The notes: a model not told the origin generated them from the letters alone. Counted from the first letter of the stretch, positions 6,120 through 42,150 are shown. The stretch is 64,000 bases of DNA from Escherichia coli (GCF_044324875.1 NZ_CP172188.1), one strand, 5' to 3'. Made by a program: numbers and translations.

Positions 6120-6431
6120 AATACTGACTGTTGCGCCCTGGCATTATCGTGGGGTATATTTCTACGGCACCTTAGAAAAACGGGTGCCGGGATTGGAACC
6201 CCGGATAATGCAAAAGGCGACACAGACGCCGAAAGCGTCTTTTCTTGTGTCATGCCATCGCACAGCCATACGTAGCGTTTAGCTCAGAGATCAATGGTAG
6301 TGCTGGCTGGGCTGCCGAAAGGCAGGCCGGTTCCCTTTTGCGCCGGTAGTTCCAACCCAGTCAGTGCTACCGCCATTGAGATTGGAACCTCACGCGGTAG
6401 CTCCTTAAATTAGCAAAAGGAGGCTGCCAAT

Positions 6432-23315: not shown

Positions 23316-24977
23316 TTAACCTAACTTCGCCCAGGTATCACGCAGCCCAACGGTGCGGTTAAATACCGGTTTTTCCGCCGTAGAATGGCGGCTATCGAGG
23401 CAGAAGTAACCTTCACGCTCAAACTGGAATGCTTTACCCGCAACCGCATCTTTCAGCGACGGTTCAGCAAAGCCCTGTTTGATCACCAGCGATTCCGGGT
23501 TAATCACCGACAGGAAATCATCCGCAGCACCTGGGTTAGGCACGCTGAACAGACGATCGTACAGGCGGATTTCAACCGGCAGCGCATGTGCCGCGCTCAC
23601 CCAGTGAATAACGCCTTTCACTTTACGACCATCTGCCGGATCTTTGCTTAAGGTGTCGGCGTCATAAGTACAGAAGATGGTGGTGATATTGCCTTCGGCA
23701 TCTTTCTCCACGCGTTCAGCCTTAATGACGTAAGCATTACGCAGACGCACTTCTTTACCCAGCACCAGACGTTTGTACTGCTTGTTAGCTTCTTCGCGGA
23801 AATCGGCGCGGTCGATCCAAATCTCACCGCTAAACGGCACCTGACGGCTACCCATTTCCGGTTTGTTCGGATGGTTCGGCATGGTGACCATTTCGCCTTC
23901 GCCCTGGTAGTTTTCGATAACCAGTTTCACCGGATCGATAACCGCCATTGCGCGCGGCGCATTTTCGTTGAGATCTTCACGGATGCAGGATTCCAGCGAC
24001 GCCATCTCAATGGTGTTGTCCTGCTTGGTCACGCCGATGCGTTTGCAGAACTCACGAATAGAAGCCGCAGTGTAACCACGACGACGCAGACCGGAAATGG
24101 TCGGCATACGCGGGTCATCCCAGCCTTCAACGTGTTTGTCGGTCACCAGCAGGTTCAGCTTACGCTTGGACATCACGGTGTATTCCAGATTCAGGCGCGA
24201 GAATTCGTACTGGCGCGGGTGAACAGGAATGGTGATGTTGTCCAGCACCCAGTCGTACAGGCGACGGTTGTCCTGGAACTCAAGCGTACACAGAGAGTGC
24301 GTAATACCTTCCAGCGCATCGCTGATGCAATGGGTGAAGTCGTACATCGGGTAGATGCACCACTTGTTGCCAGTCTGGTGGTGTTCAGCAAATTTAATGC
24401 GGTACAGCACCGGATCGCGCATTACGATAAATGGCGACGCCATGTCGATTTTCGCACGCAGGCAGGCTTTACCTTCTTCAAAACCACCGGCACGCATTTT
24501 TTCGAACAGCGCCAGGTTCTCTTCAACGCTGCGATCGCGGTACGGGCTGTTTTTACCCGGCTGCGTCAGGGTGCCGCGGTATTCGCGGATCTGTTCCGGC
24601 GTCAGTTCGTCAACATACGCCAGGCCTTTGTTGATCAGTTCAACAGCATAGGCGTGGAGCTGATCAAAATAATCGGAGGAGTAACGGATGTTGCCAGACC
24701 AGTGAAAACCTAACCATTCAACGTCGTTTTTAATCGACTCGACGTACTCGATATCTTCTTTTACCGGGTTAGTGTCGTCGAAACGCAGGTTGCACTGGCC
24801 TTTATAGTCCTGGGCGATCCCGAAGTTCAGGCAGATAGATTTCGCATGACCAATATGCAGATAGCCATTCGGTTCCGGCGGGAAACGGGTATGTACTGTG
24901 GTGTGCTTACCACTGGCCAGATCTTCATCGATGATCTGACGAATAAAGTTAGTCGGGCGGGCTTCTGCCTCACTCAT
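23316..24977 (-). CDS. glnS: glutaminyl-tRNA synthetase
   Basis: 553 aa; class I aaRS HIGH ([13 protein letters not shown]) and KMSKS-like (VMSKRK) motifs; essentially collinear with E. coli GlnS as recalled from memory. Confidence 0.95.
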
Positions 24978-25129
24978 TGTGGATTCCTCAAAGCGTAAAC
25001 AACGTATAACAGCGTATGATCTTATAAGCCGAATAGGCTGACAACCACTAGTTGATTAGAAATTGCTTTCTATCGTTATTTCAATAATGAGCTTTTTCAT
25101 TAAGCCCACTTTTGCGCATAAGTAAATTA

Positions 25130-25215
25130 ATGACAAATGGTACACAATTGGAACCAAAAAGGATGTAAAGGTGCACCAAATTAGTGGTGTATTGGTGCAC
25201 CTTTGGTTCAAGACT
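25130..25215. repeat. GGAACC/GGTGCACC repeat cluster with a 10-bp inverted repeat, downstream of parG
   Basis: ttggaaccaaa, ggtgcaccaa...ttggtgcacc, tttggttc; related to the repeats upstream of parF. Confidence 0.4.
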
Positions 25216-25245
25216 TTTTAAGTTCTAAAACCAACCTGAAAGACT

Positions 25246-25533
25246 TTATTTTGCTTCCTCAGACTCCGCTAACATGAGGATAGCATGGCGGATCATATTC
25301 AATTTGCTACGATTATGCTTTTTACTTAACGCATCAAGTACCTGGTACTCGTATTCATTGAAACCAACACGAATAGATTTAAAATCACGTGGAGCGTCCT
25401 TATCGAGCACTTTGTTGTCTTCTGGTTGCTCACCCGGCACCAAATCAGCCTTACTTGCAAAATCCTCAATTCGGCGTTCAAGATCGGGGTCTTTTACTTC
25501 GGGGGCTTTTACCGATTTACGAGGCTTAATCAC
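25246..25533 (-). CDS. ParG-like ribbon-helix-helix centromere-binding protein
   Basis: C-terminal RHH-like segment (SIRVGFNEYEYQVLDALSKKHNRSKLNMIRHAILML); overlaps the ParA-type ATPase gene. Confidence 0.65.
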   Translation of the reverse strand: MIKPRKSVKAPEVKDPDLERRIEDFASKADLVPGEQPEDNKVLDKDAPRDFKSIRVGFNEYEYQVLDALSKKHNRSKLNMIRHAILMLAESEEAK

Positions 25534-26167
25534 TTAATAACTCCTTAACCAACATCTGGATTTCACCTTTAGCTTTCCCGTTGTCCATCTCAACAACGCC
25601 CTTCCCTTCAGCCATGCAATCGCGGTAAACCTTACGATCACGAATGATGGTTTTCAGCAACTTCAGTTGCGGATATTCAGCCAGGTACTCTTTGGCCTCA
25701 TTGGTTTCATTCACAACCGGATTGGATGGGGCCATTGTTAAGACTGCGAACGCCTTAATGCTAGGATTAGGCATCAGGTCCAAAGCCTCTTCAAACACTT
25801 CAACAAAGTGTGCCAGCGTGTCTAAATCTGGTTGAGATGGTCTGAATGGGACCAACACAATATCTGCAGCGGTTATGCCTGTACGCATCTCTTTGCTATC
25901 GCGCCCGGCTGTATCAACAACTACAAATTCATAACGCTTATCCAGATCGAGAAGTGTTTCTCGAATATTACCAAACTTCTGGACACAATGAATTACAGGA
26001 GAAACCTCTGCCGTGTTACGGTCAGCGGCCCAGCGGGCAGCTGTTCCTTGCTTGTCTGCATCTAGTAACACTACATCCTTATTTTCGCGGGCAAGCTCCG
26101 CACAGATGTTTACGCTTGTGGTTGATTTTCCACAGCCACCTTTTTGGCTGACTACCAATATAATCAT
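25526..26167 (-). CDS. ParA/ParF-type partition ATPase (type Ib)
   Basis: Deviant Walker A KGGCGKST, about 213 aa, no N-terminal HTH domain. Confidence 0.85.
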   Translation of the reverse strand: MIILVVSQKGGCGKSTTSVNICAELARENKDVVLLDADKQGTAARWAADRNTAEVSPVIHCVQKFGNIRETLLDLDKRYEFVVVDTAGRDSKEMRTGITAADIVLVPFRPSQPDLDTLAHFVEVFEEALDLMPNPSIKAFAVLTMAPSNPVVNETNEAKEYLAEYPQLKLLKTIIRDRKVYRDCMAEGKGVVEMDNGKAKGEIQMLVKELLSD

Positions 26168-26189
26168 ATCCGTTCCTCGGTGTTATTTT

Positions 26190-26430
26190 GGTATCAAACT
26201 GGTTCCAAACAGAAGCCTTATTGATGCGGTTTTGGCTCTATAGTGGAGTCATTATGCTTTGCAAAAGTATAACACTAATCATTCTAAATTTGCCCTCTGT
26301 TGCATCCTGTTTAACACGAAATCAGCACTAAATTGGAACCAGATACAAAGCAGCACCATAACAACACCGTTTTGGTACTAAAAGAGCACCAAACTAGAAC
26401 CATAACGGTATAAAAAAGGCTGCAAATTGC
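26190..26430. repeat. candidate centromere-like repeat array for the ParF/ParG system
   Basis: Several TGGTTCC/TGGAACC/TGGTACT/TAGAACC-type motifs upstream of the parF-like gene. Confidence 0.4.
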
Positions 26431-26452
26431 AGCCTTTGAAGATGTAGATTGG

Positions 26453-26824
26453 TTAATCAGGGAGTGAGTTTGCCAAATTCTGAGCAGAGCGGCTTTTCGG
26501 AACGCCTGGTTTTTTTACATCCTCTGAGACAGAGGTTTTTCCTTCAGTAGGTTCCCGAACTTCATGCGAAATTTCAAGAAACGAAACCAGCATTTTTCTG
26601 ATCACTTCAGAGCTATTATCACCGGATAAAAGCGATGCCAACATGGGAGGTAATCTGCTATCAACCTCGCCAAGAGCGATACCTGCAAGCATCGCAGTGC
26701 GCACCATATCATTGCGATCACTTAATGGATGGGCCTCAATTTTTGCCACAGCATATTGCTCACTGGCGTAAGCGTTAAGATCTGAACGAAGATAAAACAT
26801 TATTTTTCGACGTTCTTTAGACAT
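26453..26824 (-). CDS. parR: ParR-like partition adaptor (type II system)
   Basis: Small protein downstream of parM; N-terminal RRKIMFYLRSDLN...RTAMLAGIALG resembles ParR of R1. Confidence 0.55.
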   Translation of the reverse strand: MSKERRKIMFYLRSDLNAYASEQYAVAKIEAHPLSDRNDMVRTAMLAGIALGEVDSRLPPMLASLLSGDNSSEVIRKMLVSFLEISHEVREPTEGKTSVSEDVKKPGVPKSRSAQNLANSLPD

Positions 26825-26834
26825 GGCAACCTCA

Positions 26835-27794
26835 TCAACCGATAGATTTTAGACCATATACAAGAGCAAGTTGTGGATCATCAGCAACGAAAAACCTATC
26901 GTCACGAATGTTTACCTGCTCACGGATAGCATCAGCAACAAGCGGCGCGCCGCCACCAATTACCATAACATGTGTGTATCCTTTGAAATCACTGATCACA
27001 TCCAGTACGCGTGTACGGAGTCGCTCTATGCTTGACGAAATGGCTTTCTTAACATCATCAATAGCAGACGGATCGTTAATATTGTCGGTCAGATAATCCT
27101 CATCATCTCGATTAATGATTAATTGATCGACGTTATAATTAGAGGTTTCGGTATTAGCTTTTGCAAGTGCCTGTCTGACCTCTTTAGTTACCAGCGAAAC
27201 GCCGAGATTAGAATCGCCAAATACGCGAGAAACGGCGGTCATTTGCCCGGCAACCATCGACACATCCAGAGTAGTCCCGCCAAGATCAACAATAAGCACA
27301 GAATGCGCTGGCACAAGGCTGTCGCACAGACCGATCCCTGCGGGTATTGACTCCGGGCGCACAGTCACTTTTTTGATAGTAAAAACCTGACCTTTGTTAA
27401 GGGTGACTGGTCGCATCAGGCTGGCCTTTTTCCGCTCAATATTTTTCATGTTGTATTGTGCGTCGTCGTCATAAAACTCTGCCAGTGGCAACGTGACTAC
27501 TATTTCCACTTCTTGAGGCTCAATGCCACTTGTAAGCAGGGCATGATGAACAGCAAGCACATTAAGCGGGCTGTATTGCCATTCAACGTTATTCGTTGGC
27601 AGAGCATCCGGCGAGATCAAGTCATATGAATATTTTTCGTCATCAATGATGTAGTTAAACGTTTTTCCTGCGCCAAATGTGGCGGACCATCCACGTTTAA
27701 AACTGTTCGGGCAGATATGGGTTCGAGTTTCCCCGTCTTGTTCCCACAGCATTTTGATATTGGTAGAACCATCGTCGATAAAAATGCGCATCAT
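26835..27794 (-). CDS. parM: ParM/StbA actin-like partition ATPase
   Basis: MRIFIDDGSTNIK N-terminal phosphate-1 motif as in ParM; ATG 27794/27791 with GGAG RBS (ORF track 27920 extends into the iterons). Confidence 0.8.
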   Translation of the reverse strand: MMRIFIDDGSTNIKMLWEQDGETRTHICPNSFKRGWSATFGAGKTFNYIIDDEKYSYDLISPDALPTNNVEWQYSPLNVLAVHHALLTSGIEPQEVEIVVTLPLAEFYDDDAQYNMKNIERKKASLMRPVTLNKGQVFTIKKVTVRPESIPAGIGLCDSLVPAHSVLIVDLGGTTLDVSMVAGQMTAVSRVFGDSNLGVSLVTKEVRQALAKANTETSNYNVDQLIINRDDEDYLTDNINDPSAIDDVKKAISSSIERLRTRVLDVISDFKGYTHVMVIGGGAPLVADAIREQVNIRDDRFFVADDPQLALVYGLKSIG

Positions 27795-27884
27795 ATTGCT
27801 CCACTTCTGAGACACATTTGAGAAAGAATTGAATCTTATATGAGAAAACAAAATAAAACCAGAAGTTGAGAGAGCAAAAAGCAC

Positions 27885-27955
27885 CAGATTTGAGACAAAC
27901 CAGAGACAAACCAGAGACAAACTAGAGACACACTAGAGACAAGTATGAGAAACAA
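27885..27955. promoter_or_regulatory. parC-like centromere/promoter iterons
   Basis: About six tandem 11-bp repeats (accagagacaa / actagagacac) directly upstream of parM. Confidence 0.6.
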
Positions 27956-28013
27956 GAAATCTTAAGAGTGAAAATCACAAAGTGGAGAAGATTTAAGAAA
28001 AAGGAGGTGTTAG

Positions 28014-28298
28014 ATGAGTGCAATAGCGACCTGTGACACAGTTTGTTCCGGTCATGGAGGATTCCCTCCGCGACCTGTAGCAGAAACAGTTTCCTGGTTT
28101 ACCGTAAATGGAAAGCCAGTTGTTGTAGATGGTGCCATGTTTCCCAGTCACACTGACGGTAACAGTGCACATCCAGGGGCAGCTGTATCGACGCGAGTAT
28201 GGTTTTCGATAGGTGGAAAGGGAGTTGTCTGTGTAGGCGATCCGCTTTCTTGTGGTTCTGTTATCGCCAACGGCGAGGATATTTTTCAGGTTGCATAA
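28014..28298 (+). CDS. PAAR-like spike-tip protein
   Basis: CSGHGG...VNGKPVVVDGAMFPSH...IGGKGVVCVGDPLSCGSVIANG pattern resembles PAAR-repeat proteins such as T4 gp5.4. Confidence 0.5.
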   Translation: MSAIATCDTVCSGHGGFPPRPVAETVSWFTVNGKPVVVDGAMFPSHTDGNSAHPGAAVSTRVWFSIGGKGVVCVGDPLSCGSVIANGEDIFQVA

Positions 28299-29846: not shown

Positions 29847-30019
29847 GAACATAAACAATAAAATAAATCATCAAAAATTTGATGTTGATCTTCCATGTTT
29901 TCAGGCTTATATTCACGCCGTTGCAGCAAATTCTGCGACCGGGTTTAGCAGCCTGAATGTACATGCGGACAACCGCAGATATCCGATATTGCGGTATTTT
30001 TGTGTCCGTAAAACCATGT

Positions 30020-30110
30020 TACGCCCGAATTATGGTGGGGCGTGATGGGGAGGCTTCGGCCTGCTGGTTTCATGTACGCCAGTCTGCTAACCCCGTCACG
30101 TCCTGCCACC
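30020..30110 (+). ncRNA. c4-like antisense RNA region of immunity module 2 (boundaries approximate)
   Basis: Element ctgctaa (about 30083) is complementary to ttagcag at 29945 and 30116 in the icd leader; compensatory changes in module 3. Confidence 0.45.
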
Positions 30111-30160
30111 CGTTTAGCAGCGGGTAGCAGGTTGTTAAACCTGTACATGAGGCCGTAACT

Positions 30161-38296: not shown

Positions 38297-39004
38297 GTGA
38301 GTATTTTCAGCAGCGTTGGTAGAACGTTGACCACCGCATTGTCATTTAACACGAAATCATTCACCAGCAACCTCATTAGCGACATTCTTGATAAAGCCAT
38401 ATCAGGCGGCGGGGTAAGCGGGAATTACAGTAGCGATATTGCCTACGGGAAAAATATTGTTGCTGCCGCTATGCGCATCCGTTACGCCCAGGGGTGGCAG
38501 TGGACCGTTGAAGTGGATGGTCTGAACGGCTTCGATATGTTCGTGAAGGATATCACCTACAGCAGTGGGAACATCGAGACAGAAAGCAAGGTGATCGGTA
38601 GCGTAGAATTCAGCAAGCCAACCTATGTTAGCGCCGGACCGGTCACTATGACCGTGAGGGATACCGAAGATGGCAAGATCATGGACTGGTTCAAAGAGCG
38701 TCGTTCTCGTGTAACAAATCCTGATGGAACAATAAACCTTCCTCCGGAATATCTGATGAAAATCCGTGTCTACCGGGTAACTCAGGACGGCGGAAAAGAA
38801 CTGGAAGAAGAAATGCGCGTATTTCCTACACAACTTGGGGAAATCACTCGCTCACGTGATCAGGTGTCAGAGTTCTTGTCATACCCAATCACTTTCCAGA
38901 AATACACATCCGCAGGCTCAGGTGTTTCTGCTTTGGTCAACGGTGCCGCTGGCATGGCTACAAGTGCCCTGAAAAATACTGCCAGTAACATAATTAAATT
39001 TTAA
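38297..39004 (+). CDS. phage tail-associated protein (235 aa)
   Basis: GTG start with GGAGG RBS; structural block. Confidence 0.4.
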   Translation: MSIFSSVGRTLTTALSFNTKSFTSNLISDILDKAISGGGVSGNYSSDIAYGKNIVAAAMRIRYAQGWQWTVEVDGLNGFDMFVKDITYSSGNIETESKVIGSVEFSKPTYVSAGPVTMTVRDTEDGKIMDWFKERRSRVTNPDGTINLPPEYLMKIRVYRVTQDGGKELEEEMRVFPTQLGEITRSRDQVSEFLSYPITFQKYTSAGSGVSALVNGAAGMATSALKNTASNIIKF

Positions 39005-39007
39005 AAA

Positions 39008-39026
39008 GCCCCGGACAGGCCGGGGC
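39008..39026. terminator. bidirectional terminator hairpin shared by the tail operon and ant copy 3
   Basis: gccccggacaggccggggc hairpin between convergent genes. Confidence 0.55.
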
Positions 39027-39034
39027 AACAGTAA

Positions 39035-40033
39035 TTAACTAACAATCCAGTCCATAGCAATAACATCCTCTGGAGCTAAATCAATAGCATGGATTTTCCC
39101 GTCACGGATGGTGCGCCAGTGCTTTCGTGATCCACCTTCGGGCCATACCCATACACCTTCAGGCCAGGAAGAACGACGACACACTGTTGCGTATCCAGTC
39201 CTGATCTTCTCTCTGACGGTATGCAGTGACAGATTATCTTTTGGGATTTCCGGTAAAGGATGATGGATTGCCTGAAACAGCCCCATCTTCGGATGATACC
39301 AGCGTTTGTTGCGTGGTTCTGCCTCCGACATAACCTGCTTGAAGGCTTTCCGGAAGGGGGCCAGGGCCACAATGGAGCGTCGGGCAAGCAAACCATCTGG
39401 AGTTAAAAACTCATGCGTATCGGTGGGAATCCGGTAAGCGTTGACAAGGTTGCGGCATTTGGCTTCAGTCAGGCCACATTTCGCCGCCAGCTGGCGGTAG
39501 CCAATGTAGCCTTCCGGCATATTGCCTTTCTTGATTTGCTCGACGGTTTCAGCGACTTTGGACACTTGTGCCGATACCTCGGCTACCTGGGCATTTACGG
39601 CGTTAATCCGGCGTTCATGTTCAAGATGCATTTGCGCCATTTCAGCCAGGATTTCGGCTTTTGATTTTAGCGGTGAGTGCTCCGGTATTAATTGCTTAAT
39701 ACGAAAATAGCTGTTTACCAGCTCACGTTGCACTTGCCAGGCCAGATCGTCATTGAATGACTTAACAATCATTAGATAACCGGACTCAGTGAACACGCGC
39801 AAACCGCGCGGGGGGACATTAATTCCAAAAGTGTCAAAAACGCCCTTTTCAGAGTAATCAATAAGATAGGTATCTACACCATCAACAAAACGGTGCTTGT
39901 TACGATGGAAAGTTGTTTTAGCTAATCCTTTTGGTCGCTCGTGCACCTCATCAATCATCTCAAAGGTCACTACACGCTGATTTTTATATTCGAGAGTCGG
40001 GAATGGTTTGTTATTGATAGTTACTGCGTCCAT
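39035..40033 (-). CDS. ant: antirepressor (Ant), copy 3, with a different N-terminal domain
   Basis: C-terminal ~200 aa near-identical to copy 1; N-terminal 130 aa unrelated to Rha (KilA-N/ORF6N-like); ATG 40033 overlaps the icd stop. Confidence 0.8.
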   Translation of the reverse strand: MDAVTINNKPFPTLEYKNQRVVTFEMIDEVHERPKGLAKTTFHRNKHRFVDGVDTYLIDYSEKGVFDTFGINVPPRGLRVFTESGYLMIVKSFNDDLAWQVQRELVNSYFRIKQLIPEHSPLKSKAEILAEMAQMHLEHERRINAVNAQVAEVSAQVSKVAETVEQIKKGNMPEGYIGYRQLAAKCGLTEAKCRNLVNAYRIPTDTHEFLTPDGLLARRSIVALAPFRKAFKQVMSEAEPRNKRWYHPKMGLFQAIHHPLPEIPKDNLSLHTVREKIRTGYATVCRRSSWPEGVWVWPEGGSRKHWRTIRDGKIHAIDLAPEDVIAMDWIVS

Positions 40034-40248
40034 TAATGCACCTCCACGCAGTTCATTGGGCGGTTCCAGTAGGTCAAAACGTCCAGGGCATCGAGTTTGA
40101 AGCGAGCCGCAAAAATGCACGGATCTGTAGGAAGAAATGAACGCGCTTCAGCCTCAGTAGCTGCCATTACGGTGATATAGGTGTGTTTTGTGCAGGAATA
40201 AAAGCGCCAGATGAATTCTGGACGTGAGCAAGGATTGGCATTAACCAT
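40033..40248 (-). CDS. icd: Icd-like protein, module 3
   Basis: Paralog (MVNANPCSRPEFIWRFYSC...CVEVH). Confidence 0.7.
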   Translation of the reverse strand: MVNANPCSRPEFIWRFYSCTKHTYITVMAATEAEARSFLPTDPCIFAARFKLDALDVLTYWNRPMNCVEVH

Positions 40249-40299
40249 AGTTACGGCCTCATGTACAGGTTTAACAACCTGCTACCCGCTGTCAAACAG

Positions 40300-40390
40300 G
40301 TGGCAGGGCGTGACAGGGTTGACAGACTGGCGTACATGAAACCAGCAGGCCGAAGCCTCCCCATCACGCCCCACCATAATTCGGGCGTAA
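40300..40390 (-). ncRNA. c4-like antisense RNA region of immunity module 3 (boundaries approximate)
   Basis: Paralogous to 30020..30110, with the pairing element changed to ctgtcaa and both target sites changed to ttgacag. Confidence 0.45.
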
Positions 40391-40561
40391 CGTGGTTTAC
40401 GGACACAAAAATACCGCAATATCGGAAATCTGCGGATGTCCGCATGTACATTCAGGCTGTCAAACCTGGTCGCAGAATTTGCTACGACGGCGTGAATATA
40501 AGCCTGAACATCTGGAAGATCAACATCAAATTGTTGATGATTTATTTTATTATTCATGTTT

Positions 40562-40592
40562 GAAAATTCAAATTATTTTTCTAACACAATAC
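40562..40592. promoter_or_regulatory. operator-like motif upstream of immunity module 3
   Basis: gaaaattcaaattatttttctaacacaatac; inverted copy of the module 2 site. Confidence 0.4.
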
Positions 40593-40699
40593 GAAAGGGA
40601 GTGAAAATTATTCTCCAGCGTTAACCCAAACAAAATTATGTGTGCTGGAGGGTTGCTCATTTCCCGTCAGCACCCACGCCCTCAACGATAGCGGGTAGG

Positions 40700-41005
40700 G
40701 AAGGAAGCGCAATTTTGAGGGCATTTTTTACATCATCAATCCATATGTAATGAAGGCATTCTTTACACATTTCAATAATATCAATCAGTTAGCACAGTGA
40801 ATGATAATAAAAAAGCGCAATAAGAATGCACGATACGCACGATATTGGTTGAGGGTAATTTTTACATAATCCTTATATATCAATATGTTATATAAAAACA
40901 CAACTTACCAATAACAAGATACATGCAATTAAGATGTAAAAATTGCCCTCAATTGCCGATCGTTAAGGGCAAATTCTACACCTTGAGAGGGGTGTAAAAA
41001 TTGCC
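40700..41005. repeat. iteron cluster plus AT-rich region downstream of repA (incC-like)
   Basis: Copies of the TGAGGGCAA(T)TTTTACA iteron in both orientations (about 40713, 40842, 40937, 40961, 40987) around an AT-rich stretch. Confidence 0.6.
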
Positions 41006-41006
41006 C

Positions 41007-41762
41007 TTAAGACTGCTGATAGGTAAATTTTATCCTGGTAACTTTGCCGCCTTCCGTCACCTCTGAGAAGACTATTTTCATTTTTGTATTTTTTTCAATC
41101 TCTGCTACAGCCTTCGTTAAAAAACTTCTCTTAAATTCGGCATACCGCTGATAGCTTTTTGGTAACCCATAACGCTCCCGCATCCATTCGACGCCAAGTA
41201 TGGCAAAGCCGCTTCCATCATCCTTCCTGTACTGGCATAAGGACTCATAAAGCCGCATAGAATAAGGATTTGTAAGGCGAGATACTTCGGTAAAATTCAG
41301 CCTTGTGAATCTCTTATCAAGCAGAGTAAAAAACGGCATGAGATATGGATTAAGATGAATAATGTAAGTCCCACGCCGTGGTGAATAGGCATCCTTAATC
41401 ATCCAAGGATAAGACTCATAACTGTCTTCTGATTCGGTCGATTCATCAGGGTTATATATCGTAACTTTCTTCTCGCTAAGACCTGAAATGGCCTTACGAA
41501 TATCCTTGCTGGCTTCAGCAGAGGGCAAATTATACATCTCTGCATATTCGTTGACCGTCAACTCACAGGCACCTGAACCAAGAACGCCATCCTTAGAAGC
41601 ATAGCGAAGCCTTCCCACCACAATAAACAACAGTCGCTTTTGGTCGCGAGTCAGGTGATAAGCAGCCTCCGTGATCTCATTGGCTTGTGCCAAACTACGA
41701 CTAATAGGTGTCGCTGACTCAATCAGGCTGACGGCTTTTGCTGTTAATTCCGCTCTGTTCAT
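41007..41762 (-). CDS. repA: RepE(F)-like plasmid replication initiator
   Basis: Collinear with F-plasmid RepE as recalled (EAAYHLTRDQKRLLF..., EASKDIRKAI, NPYLMPFF, RLNFTEVSRLTNPYSMRLYESLCQYRK); likely start ATG 41762 gives 251 aa. Confidence 0.8.
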   Translation of the reverse strand: MNRAELTAKAVSLIESATPISRSLAQANEITEAAYHLTRDQKRLLFIVVGRLRYASKDGVLGSGACELTVNEYAEMYNLPSAEASKDIRKAISGLSEKKVTIYNPDESTESEDSYESYPWMIKDAYSPRRGTYIIHLNPYLMPFFTLLDKRFTRLNFTEVSRLTNPYSMRLYESLCQYRKDDGSGFAILGVEWMRERYGLPKSYQRYAEFKRSFLTKAVAEIEKNTKMKIVFSEVTEGGKVTRIKFTYQQS

Positions 41763-41783
41763 AACCCTGTGTGATCCTTCAAA

Positions 41784-41910
41784 TGGTGAGGGCAATTTTT
41801 ACATCACTTTGAGGGCAATTACTACACCTTTTGAGGGCAAATCTTACACCTTCTGAGGGCAAATCTTACACCGATCGTATCTAATTGAGGGCAAATCTTA
41901 CACCAGACTC
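41784..41910. repeat. five direct iterons upstream of repA (origin / autoregulation)
   Basis: Direct repeats of about 22-24 bp (ttgagggcaa(a)tcttacacc) at 41784, 41808, 41832, 41856, 41886; one inverted copy near 42027. Confidence 0.7.
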
Positions 41911-42150
41911 CTCTACAGCCCGCGCCACTACTGGCTCCAGCGACGCCTAAAAAGGATCTAAAAAGGATTAAAAATGGAAAAAGGTTTATAAAAATACTCT
42001 GTGGATATGTGAGTAGCGTCACTTAAGGTGTAAAAATCACCCTCAATAATCGCTTCTCGACCGGCAAAGATCTTCATTCAATCCCCATCGCAAATCACAC
42101 ACTCCCTATCCTCTGGAAAATGAACAGATACCTGCTTTTCGGAGGAATAA

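Follow-up and report, generated by a model that had tools for sequence, protein, structure and literature searches.

Partition cassettes encoded in the window

Investigation of a 64,000-nucleotide stretch of Escherichia coli DNA (GCF_044324875.1, NZ_CP172188.1; the whole stretch is referred to below as the window) revealed two complete plasmid-segregation cassettes of different types, adjacent to each other and both on the minus strand: a type II cassette encoding ParM and ParR, and a type Ib cassette encoding a ParA ATPase and a small ribbon-helix-helix (RHH) protein. In the order of transcription, an array of 11-bp repeats (27957-27809) is followed by parM (27791-26835), parR (26824-26453), a hairpin (26438-26412), about 240 bp of intergenic sequence, the gene encoding the ParA-type ATPase (26167-25526), an open reading frame (ORF) for a protein of 95 amino acids (25533-25246), a block at 25245-25137 and then glnS. 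An earlier note on this DNA, made from the sequence alone, had described two adjacent partition modules of different type, each with its own repeats, and all of these elements were recovered where it had placed them.

The ParM/ParR cassette and its iterons

The type II cassette encodes the actin-like ATPase ParM (StbA; 26835-27791, minus strand), a protein of 318 amino acids, or of 319 with the ATG at 27794 as the start. ParM matches the Pfam families StbA_N (4e-69) and ParM_N (9e-56), aligns end to end with structures of R1 ParM (E of about 1e-110) and has kept the nucleotide-binding motifs DDGS (residue 6), DLGG (169) and GGG (279); it is thus an actin-fold ATPase with the phosphate-1, phosphate-2 and adenosine motifs that define the type II class. 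An ORF of 361 amino acids covering parM and starting at a TTG was rejected as a mechanical over-extension through the parC iterons, relatives being annotated with the 318-amino-acid form.

The gene encoding ParR (StbB, 123 amino acids; 26453-26824, minus strand) lies directly downstream of parM. ParR matches the Pfam family PF10784 Plasmid_stab_B (2.9e-13; 49.9 bits, with a cut-off of 25), the solved structure of pB171 ParR (2jd3; E 3.9e-7) and a PHROG partition protein (9e-50), and is composed of a DNA-binding RHH domain at the N-terminus and a tail at the C-terminus that ends in NLANSLPD. This small adaptor with an N-terminal RHH, encoded directly downstream of parM, is a further characteristic of type II systems, and the family and structure matches of both proteins bear out the actin-like ParM/ParR-type module described earlier.

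Upstream of parM, the region assigned to the parC centromere and the promoter (27809-27957) contains the 11-bp iterons. Tandem Repeats Finder reported a repeat at 27892-27942 (period 11, 4.6 copies, 92% matches, score 81), within which four consecutive copies with no or one mismatch lie in register at 27892-27935, in agreement with the iterons of the earlier note. Defined by their TCTC core, six contiguous iterons are present at 27892-27957 (GAGACAAACCA on the plus strand, TGGTTTGTCTC on the transcribed strand). Relative to the ATG of parM, the TCTC cores extend from -159 to -104 in perfect 11-bp register and recur at -54, -32 and -21, and proximal iteron copies are located at 27809, 27820 and 27842, beside the ribosome-binding site. 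In the rest of the 64 kb only isolated iteron matches with one or two mismatches were detected, none of them adjoining another. Tandem iterons of about 10-11 bp are therefore present upstream of parM, as in other type II systems; the promoter itself was not located, and the spacer between the distal and the proximal copies probably contains it.

The ParA ATPase and the 95-amino-acid RHH protein

Regarding the type Ib cassette, the ParA ATPase (213 amino acids; 25526-26167, minus strand) has a deviant Walker A motif, KGGCGKS, at residues 9-15 and matches the Pfam families AAA_31, CbiA, MipZ and VirC1, while no helix-turn-helix (HTH) domain at the N-terminus (HTH_54) was detected in the Pfam search. 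It thereby combines the features of type Ib ParA proteins, namely a length of about 200-220 amino acids, a deviant Walker A of the form KGGxxK[ST] and the lack of an N-terminal HTH. Its best match among solved structures is ParF (4dzz; E 1.5e-18), and it shares 43% identity with the ParA of pB171-type par2 and 45% with the ParA of an IncK2/Z plasmid.

The gene encoding the 95-amino-acid protein (25246-25533, minus strand) starts at a GTG and overlaps the parA stop by 8 nt, an arrangement of translational coupling. The protein has a basic N-terminus (MIKPRK), a helix at residues 16-29 and a strand-helix-helix at about residues 50-93. The protein itself has no sequence match in Pfam, NCBIfam or the PDB, and since a word-indexed search returned only close relatives (at least 76% identity over the full length), an exhaustive HMMER search was needed; this yielded 101 representative relatives of 55-160 amino acids, plus one outlier of 1491 amino acids. 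At the C-terminus, the members of the family share a conserved block in the alignment, FKxIxxPFNEYEY...RSKLNxIR, and 28 of 72 relatives match NikA-like and 21 of 72 match RHH_1 profiles. The AlphaFold2 model (pLDDT, the predicted local distance difference test score, 89) contains an extended segment followed by helices at residues 60-73 and 77-93, and also predicts the N-terminal helix at 16-29. Foldseek matches to this model are mostly RHH proteins, with CopA-SO and TacA1 as the best, followed by ParG (1p94), Arc and CopG; none is significant (best E 0.35, ParG E 0.8), as is expected for 43 residues. A match to the PHROG family of Arc-like repressors was also obtained (E 1.8e-4). On the basis of the HMMER relatives, the family profiles, the AlphaFold2 and Foldseek results and the PHROG match, the 95-amino-acid protein is an RHH protein, with centromere binding as its predicted role.

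Residue R5 is conserved in at least 90% of the 72 relatives, and by analogy with ParG the tail that carries it may correspond to the arginine-finger tail of type Ib centromere-binding proteins (PMC5016525). A small protein encoded downstream of parA, with a C-terminal RHH and an N-terminal tail containing a conserved arginine, is what type Ib systems have in common. For each of the three remote relatives of the RHH protein (33-44% identity), the gene directly follows one for a ParA of about 209 amino acids; plasmid Rep genes are present beside two of the three, and resolvase/integrase or toxin genes also occur at these loci.

The Pfam family ParG does not match the 95-amino-acid protein and is not among the 25 families most matched by the 72 relatives, and PDB sequence and profile searches with the protein gave only sub-threshold CopG matches. 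Comparisons with pB171-type ParB by blastp and hhalign were not significant, and hhalign against the small partner protein of the IncK2/Z plasmid gave nothing. Judged by these comparisons, the protein appears to share only the fold class with ParG and pB171 ParB. The designation of the cassette as ParF/ParG-type in the earlier note consequently stands at the level of the class (type Ib) but not of the family, as the ATPase is more similar to the pB171-type par2 ParA than to ParF and the 95-amino-acid protein is by sequence outside the ParG and pB171 ParB families. A 15-bp tandem duplication (1.9 copies, 92% matches) at 25484-25512, in the part of the RHH gene coding for the N-terminal tail, is probably trivial.

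Motif clusters on both flanks of the ParA/RHH operon

Clusters of degenerate GNACC(A)/TGGTNC half-sites, often arranged as TGGNNCCA palindromes, are present on both flanks of the parA-RHH operon, at 25137-25211 on the downstream side and at 26334-26402 plus 26199-26206, the latter within a proximal group at 26186-26206, on the upstream side; short palindromes among these half-sites are TGGAACCA, TGGTTCCA and TTGGTGCACCAA. The downstream cluster contains the sites TGGTACAC, TTGGAACCAA and TTGGTTCA as well as two perfect inverted arms of 13 nt, AAAGGTGCACCAA and TTGGTGCACCTTT, and is proposed as a candidate second centromere/operator block, as its position resembles that of parC2 of pB171. In the upstream control and putative centromere region (26186-26410), the distal sites are TGGAACCA, CAGCACCA, TGGTACTA, GAGCACCA and TAGAACCA, and the proximal sites, just before the ribosome-binding site, are GATACCAAAA (minus strand) and TGGTTCCA.

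The two flanks of the operon are the two richest 150-bp intervals for GNACC/GGTNC in the 64 kb, with seven sites per 150 bp on the downstream flank and five on the upstream flank, where 0.76 are expected (shuffle P <=1e-4 for the downstream and 5e-4 for the upstream cluster). The GGAACC-type repeats of the earlier note are thus real and coincide with these two top-ranking intervals, although they are better described as degenerate half-sites. Short-repeat arrays adjoining the operon are also a feature of type Ib systems, and a centromere/operator role is predicted for them here.

The downstream cluster is identical in phage D6, in which the upstream sites are either kept or swapped for different variants of this motif. 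Around the downstream cluster, the sequence of the EC361 plasmid is otherwise unrelated, because glnS is absent there, and the motif cluster is still present. A variant of the cassette on p1_000200, with a ParA of 93% and an RHH protein of 77% identity, has its own TGGTG/GTACC sites on both flanks. Similarly, RHH relatives at 33-44% identity have TTGGTACC-type sites beside their own operons: the metagenomic relative at 44% identity has TTGGTACCG repeats with 11-bp spacing before parA and after the RHH gene, and the relative at 33% identity has two copies of TTGGTACCAA, upstream only. The presence of the motif in the variant cassette and in remote relatives indicates that it follows the RHH protein family, and that the arrangement on both flanks recurs.

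In the contig of Logan accession SRR23502326, near-perfect TTGGTACCG repeats at 11-bp spacing flank the ParA/RHH pair at 600-707 and 1634-1680. Compared to the degenerate sites of the window, these repeats are cleaner, and they can serve as a reference for the putative centromere motif that goes with this RHH family.

Transcription units

An intrinsic-terminator-like hairpin (26412-26438, minus strand) follows the parR stop and consists of a perfect 11-nt inverted repeat with a 10-bp stem and a 3-nt loop, followed by a U run. Its RNA fold has a free energy of -15.4 kcal/mol (z -4.4), with none of 200 shuffled sequences being equally stable, and the hairpin has been kept in D6, EC361 and MIN14. 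The consensus scan for promoters and terminators missed this terminator; the hairpin was checked by folding. As the terminator hairpin sits between them, the ParMRC and ParA/RHH cassettes most likely are separate transcription units.

The replicon and the absence of P1-type partition genes

A plasmid replicon of the Rep_3/RepE-like type is located at 40717-42047 (minus strand), 14 kb from the par cassettes, with Rep3 domains and the repeat families D1-D5; the RepE-like iteron replicon of the earlier note was thereby confirmed. The initiator gene (41007-41795, minus strand; probable ATG at 41762) encodes a protein matching the Pfam families Rep3_N (3e-29, 102.5 bits) and Rep3_C (1e-15, 58.2 bits). 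On the NCBIfam RepE model it scores 280.5 bits, below the cut-off of 342, and it is therefore referred to as RepE-like and not as RepE. Upstream of the initiator gene, five tandem iterons of about 20 bp with a spacing of about 22 bp (TGAGGGCAAATCTTACACC) are present at 41788-41907, and further direct and inverted copies were found at 40717-41011 and 42020-42047, so that an initiator with Rep3 WH1 and WH2 domains is flanked by direct iterons, as is typical of Rep_3/RepE-type replicons, in which such iterons measure about 19-22 bp.

No P1-type RepA-ParAB (HTH-ParA and P1-type ParB) was detected in the window, in line with the earlier statement that the maintenance set is unlike that of P1. A third partition system, a P1-type ParAB beside the rep gene, was considered because a relative from Enterobacter carries one, and was rejected, the neighbouring ORF encoding an ORF6N antirepressor-like protein.

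Distribution and evolution of the par region

The 3-kb par region is 89% identical to that of phage D6 and matches 122 plasmids in PLSDB, of which 120 are non-mobilizable and which, among those listed, are mostly about 90 kb in size. Both cassettes are contiguous in 92 of these 122 records and in phage D6. The similarity extends beyond the par region, as 74-80% of each 25-kb block of the window aligns with plasmids of about 90 kb at 95-98% identity. Among 5426 complete E. coli genomes, the locus is present in 101, in every case on a plasmid and never on a chromosome. With synteny and nucleotide similarity across both phage and plasmid genes, the window belongs to a D6-like (P1-group g2) phage-plasmid, the plasmid state being known from the relatives and not visible in the 64 kb itself. 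Chromosomal integration, named in the earlier note as a refuting case, was considered and found no support, as the window matches plasmids and all 101 E. coli occurrences are plasmid-borne.

The genes encoding ParA and the RHH protein are 98.6-99.7% identical to those of D6 at the nucleotide level, with only two and four synonymous substitutions, and both proteins are 100% identical to their D6 counterparts (orf60 for ParA, orf61 for the RHH protein). In contrast, parM shares 79.4% nucleotide and 93% amino acid identity with D6 and is 98.2% identical to EC361 at the nucleotide level, which places a recombination breakpoint between the two cassettes. The 159 synonymous compared to 22 non-synonymous codon differences between this parM and that of D6 indicate strong purifying selection. 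As ParR shares 56% identity and parM 79% nucleotide identity with D6, the ParMRC half derives from another lineage, of the EC361 type. The window thus fits the description as a mosaic phage-plasmid, both in its match to D6-like plasmid prophages of about 90 kb and in the breakpoint between the cassettes.

ParR varies most among the proteins: the common D6 allele is only 56% identical to it, and the closest alleles on plasmids reach 83-86% (86% being the best in PLSDB). The layout of the distal iterons also varies, with six contiguous copies here, two groups of three split by 40 bp in EC361 and MIN14, and three plus scattered copies in D6; the iteron principle is also found in the Enterobacter relative, in a different layout. 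From these sequence differences, a new partition specificity of the ParR/parC allele is plausible.

This Enterobacter relative, the more distant D6-like plasmid p60214CZ_1 of Enterobacter hormaechei (NZ_CP085744.1), has only parMR at the syntenic site, with a gap of 27 bp between dam and parR, and has genes encoding a P1-type ParA (HTH_54) and ParB (PF08775) beside its Rep_3 initiator. Having two par systems, parMR being the one that stays constant, seems to be characteristic of the D6 lineage.

Comparison with known partition systems

Phage D6 (MF356679 / NC_050154) has the same four genes (orf58-orf61) in the same order and orientation, located between glnS/dam and the block of PAAR/upfB and capsid genes, and shares the terminator and the flanking site clusters with the window. 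It differs in ParR (56%), in parM (79% at the nucleotide level) and in the arrangement of the iteron array. StbA, StbB and a 'possible ParA' are already annotated in the D6 GenBank record, D6 has been tabulated as ParA-Ib plus RHH (PMC8026635), and cop, parA, stbB and parM have been listed for pYU39_89 (PMC6799933). The arrangement is thus already known and common, being the standard annotated maintenance region of D6-like plasmid prophages in E. coli and Salmonella; the maintenance set is as the earlier note had described it, and is not new, given the D6 record, pYU39_89 and more than 100 circular plasmids of about 90 kb in the database.

The double par locus of pB171 is composed of par1, which is a ParMRC system, and par2, a type Ib ParA/ParB system, with the sites parC1 and parC2 (Ebersbach & Gerdes 2001; Ringgaard et al. 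2007, via PMC4270457), and par2 has been shown experimentally to position plasmids (PMC4270457). The plasmid pCE10A was used as a stand-in for pB171, as the residues of its ParR match the solved pB171 ParR. The window resembles pB171 in that a type II system adjoins one of type Ib (RHH) and in that sites are present both upstream and downstream of the type Ib operon, like parC1 and parC2; identities to the pB171-type genes of pCE10A are 42.5% for ParM, 43% for ParA and 31% for the N-terminus of ParR, whereas the RHH protein has no sequence relation to the pB171-type ParB. The layout differs, however, in that the pB171 cassettes, as seen on pCE10A, are divergent and share a central parC1, making regulatory cross-talk possible, while those in the window are arranged head to tail with a terminator between them and have unrelated sets of sites 1.5 kb apart.

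As in R1 ParMRC, 11-bp iterons are present upstream of parM on both sides of the probable promoter region, the repeats of R1 parC likewise being split between both sides of its promoter (PMC5016525); the sequence and number of the iterons are unlike those of R1, and ParR is closer to the pB171/StbB family. The resemblance to ParF/ParG of TP228 lies in the combination of a small Walker ATPase with a small protein composed of an N-terminal tail and a C-terminal RHH, but the Pfam ParG match is missing here and the sites flank the operon on both sides, compared to one continuous upstream centromere in TP228. With the type Ia RepA-ParA-ParB-parS system of P1, the window shares the role in maintenance of a low-copy plasmid prophage and a related myovirus backbone, but it contains neither an HTH-ParA nor a P1-type ParB, and its par genes are not beside the replicon. 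Combinations of type I-RHH with type II systems were found in 971 PLSDB plasmids in a 2026 survey, in which the combination was called previously reported (PMC13245405).

Proposed function and alternative explanations

Taken together, the region very probably is the plasmid-inheritance region of a D6-like phage-plasmid, composed of two self-contained, co-oriented partition cassettes. The following steps are modelled on the mechanisms of well-studied systems (PMC5016525; PMC4270457). In the ParMRC cassette, dimers of ParR would use their N-terminal RHH to bind the 11-bp parC iterons and would repress a promoter within or beside the iterons, while their C-terminal tails would capture the ends of ParM-ATP filaments, so that the growing filaments would push sister plasmids to opposite cell halves; the parMR operon would end at the hairpin terminator. 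In the second cassette, the 95-amino-acid RHH protein is predicted to bind the TGGNNCCA-like sites before parA and after its own gene, leading to autoregulation of the operon and to the formation of partition complexes, and its basic N-terminal tail may stimulate ATP hydrolysis by ParA dimers bound to the nucleoid, by which plasmids would be spaced over the nucleoid. Both cassettes would serve the same low-copy replicon, driven by the RepE-like iteron origin. Since the DNA sites of the two cassettes are unrelated, they should act independently and additively.

Several observations weigh against this interpretation. The searchable literature yielded no experiment on either of the D6 cassettes, and redundancy is possible, since only one locus of the dual SCP1 system was of importance in the laboratory (PMC13245405). 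No relation in sequence between the RHH protein and ParG or pB171 ParB could be detected, and on the NCBIfam model NF041546 ParA_partition the ParA scores 162.8 bits over the full profile, below the cut-off of 180; by its sequence, ParA is a relative of this equivalog that falls outside it. Neither promoter could be placed confidently, the consensus scan giving no more promoter-like sites than were found in shuffled sequences, and within the D6 group selection on parA and the RHH gene is unmeasurable because both are nearly invariant in close relatives.

It is unlikely that only ParMRC works as a partition system and that ParA/RHH is carried along redundantly or is decaying after its acquisition from another plasmid. 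The Enterobacter relative, with parMR at the same site and no ParA/RHH, would fit this explanation, as it identifies parMR as the constant element and the adjoining cassette as exchangeable, and the dual-par element SCP1 provides a precedent for a single locus being of importance in the laboratory (PMC13245405). Decay, however, is difficult to reconcile with an intact deviant Walker A in a ParA that can be aligned in full with ParA profiles and the ParF structure, or with an RHH gene that is intact and translationally coupled. The pair has moreover been retained in essentially all sampled D6-like plasmids of E. coli, Salmonella and Shigella, the diverged pair of alleles (93% and 77%) keeps its own flanking sites, and in the Enterobacter relative ParA/RHH is swapped for another ParA-type system and not for nothing.

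A role of ParA/RHH in regulation, copy control or incompatibility in place of segregation is most improbable: ParA-like ATPases do position other cargos, the best named match of the RHH protein is an Arc-like repressor, the gene listed at this place in pYU39_89 is 'cop' (PMC6799933) and the proximal sites are located where an autorepressor would bind, but type Ib centromere-binding proteins normally also act as autorepressors (PMC5016525), the pairing with a small ParA, the plasmid-maintenance neighbours (rep in two of three relatives) and the sites on both flanks form the signature of type Ib partition, and the ParA is 43% identical to that of pB171-type par2, a system shown by experiment to position plasmids.

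Within the preferred interpretation of two partition cassettes, a further, speculative possibility is that the two are more than simply redundant, and that ParMRC is the constant ancestral machine of the D6 lineage and its ParA-type neighbour an exchangeable addition, represented here by a type Ib system with an RHH protein recognising TTGGNNCCAA and in Enterobacter by a type Ia system of the P1 type. Recombination between and within the cassettes, including the new ParR/parC allele of the window, might then allow escape from partition incompatibility with co-resident relatives, and the TGGTACC-type motif on both flanks might represent an undescribed class of type Ib centromere.

The window thus carries a complete set for low-copy maintenance, composed of an iteron replicon and two segregation systems, and this bears on annotation, since D6-like elements frequently pass for ordinary plasmids (PMC6799933; bioRxiv 10.1101/2025.09.12.675607). 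Current understanding would be left unchanged by this finding, as the mechanism can probably be read from well-studied homologues. Why plasmids carry two partition systems is still an open general question (PMC13245405), for which D6-like elements, with a constant ParMR, a swappable second module and variable ParR/parC alleles, provide a convenient natural series.

Neighbouring genes and immunity RNAs

Directly beyond parC, a gene encoding a PAAR-motif protein of 94 amino acids is located in divergent orientation (28014-28298, plus strand) and is a homologue of P1 upfC according to the D6 annotation. On the other side, directly downstream of the par region, lies a full-length gene encoding a glutaminyl-tRNA synthetase of 553 amino acids (23316-24977, minus strand). 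This glnS is annotated in many D6-like plasmids and, as orf62, in phage D6, while relatives of the EC361 type are without it and have dam abutting the RHH gene; this housekeeping aminoacyl-tRNA synthetase is a variable cargo of these phage-plasmids.

Regarding RNA genes, Rfam searches revealed an isrK-like small RNA at 6167-6245 and three genes for C4 antisense RNA, the immunity RNA of the P1 immI type, at 6290-6377 (plus strand), 30028-30113 (plus strand) and 40296-40381 (minus strand), which seem many for one element. Two of the three have a1/b1 sites, the a1b1 targets being located at 29907-29959 and 40449-40501. The C4 copy at 40.3 kb lies upstream of the ORF6N antirepressor-like gene (39035-40120), between the tail genes and the replicon. 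At 39001-40633 the window has no counterpart in most D6-like plasmids, whose alignments begin only at about 40634; the segment with the ORF6N gene and the third c4 locus, just next to the RepE iterons, is thus a variable insert.

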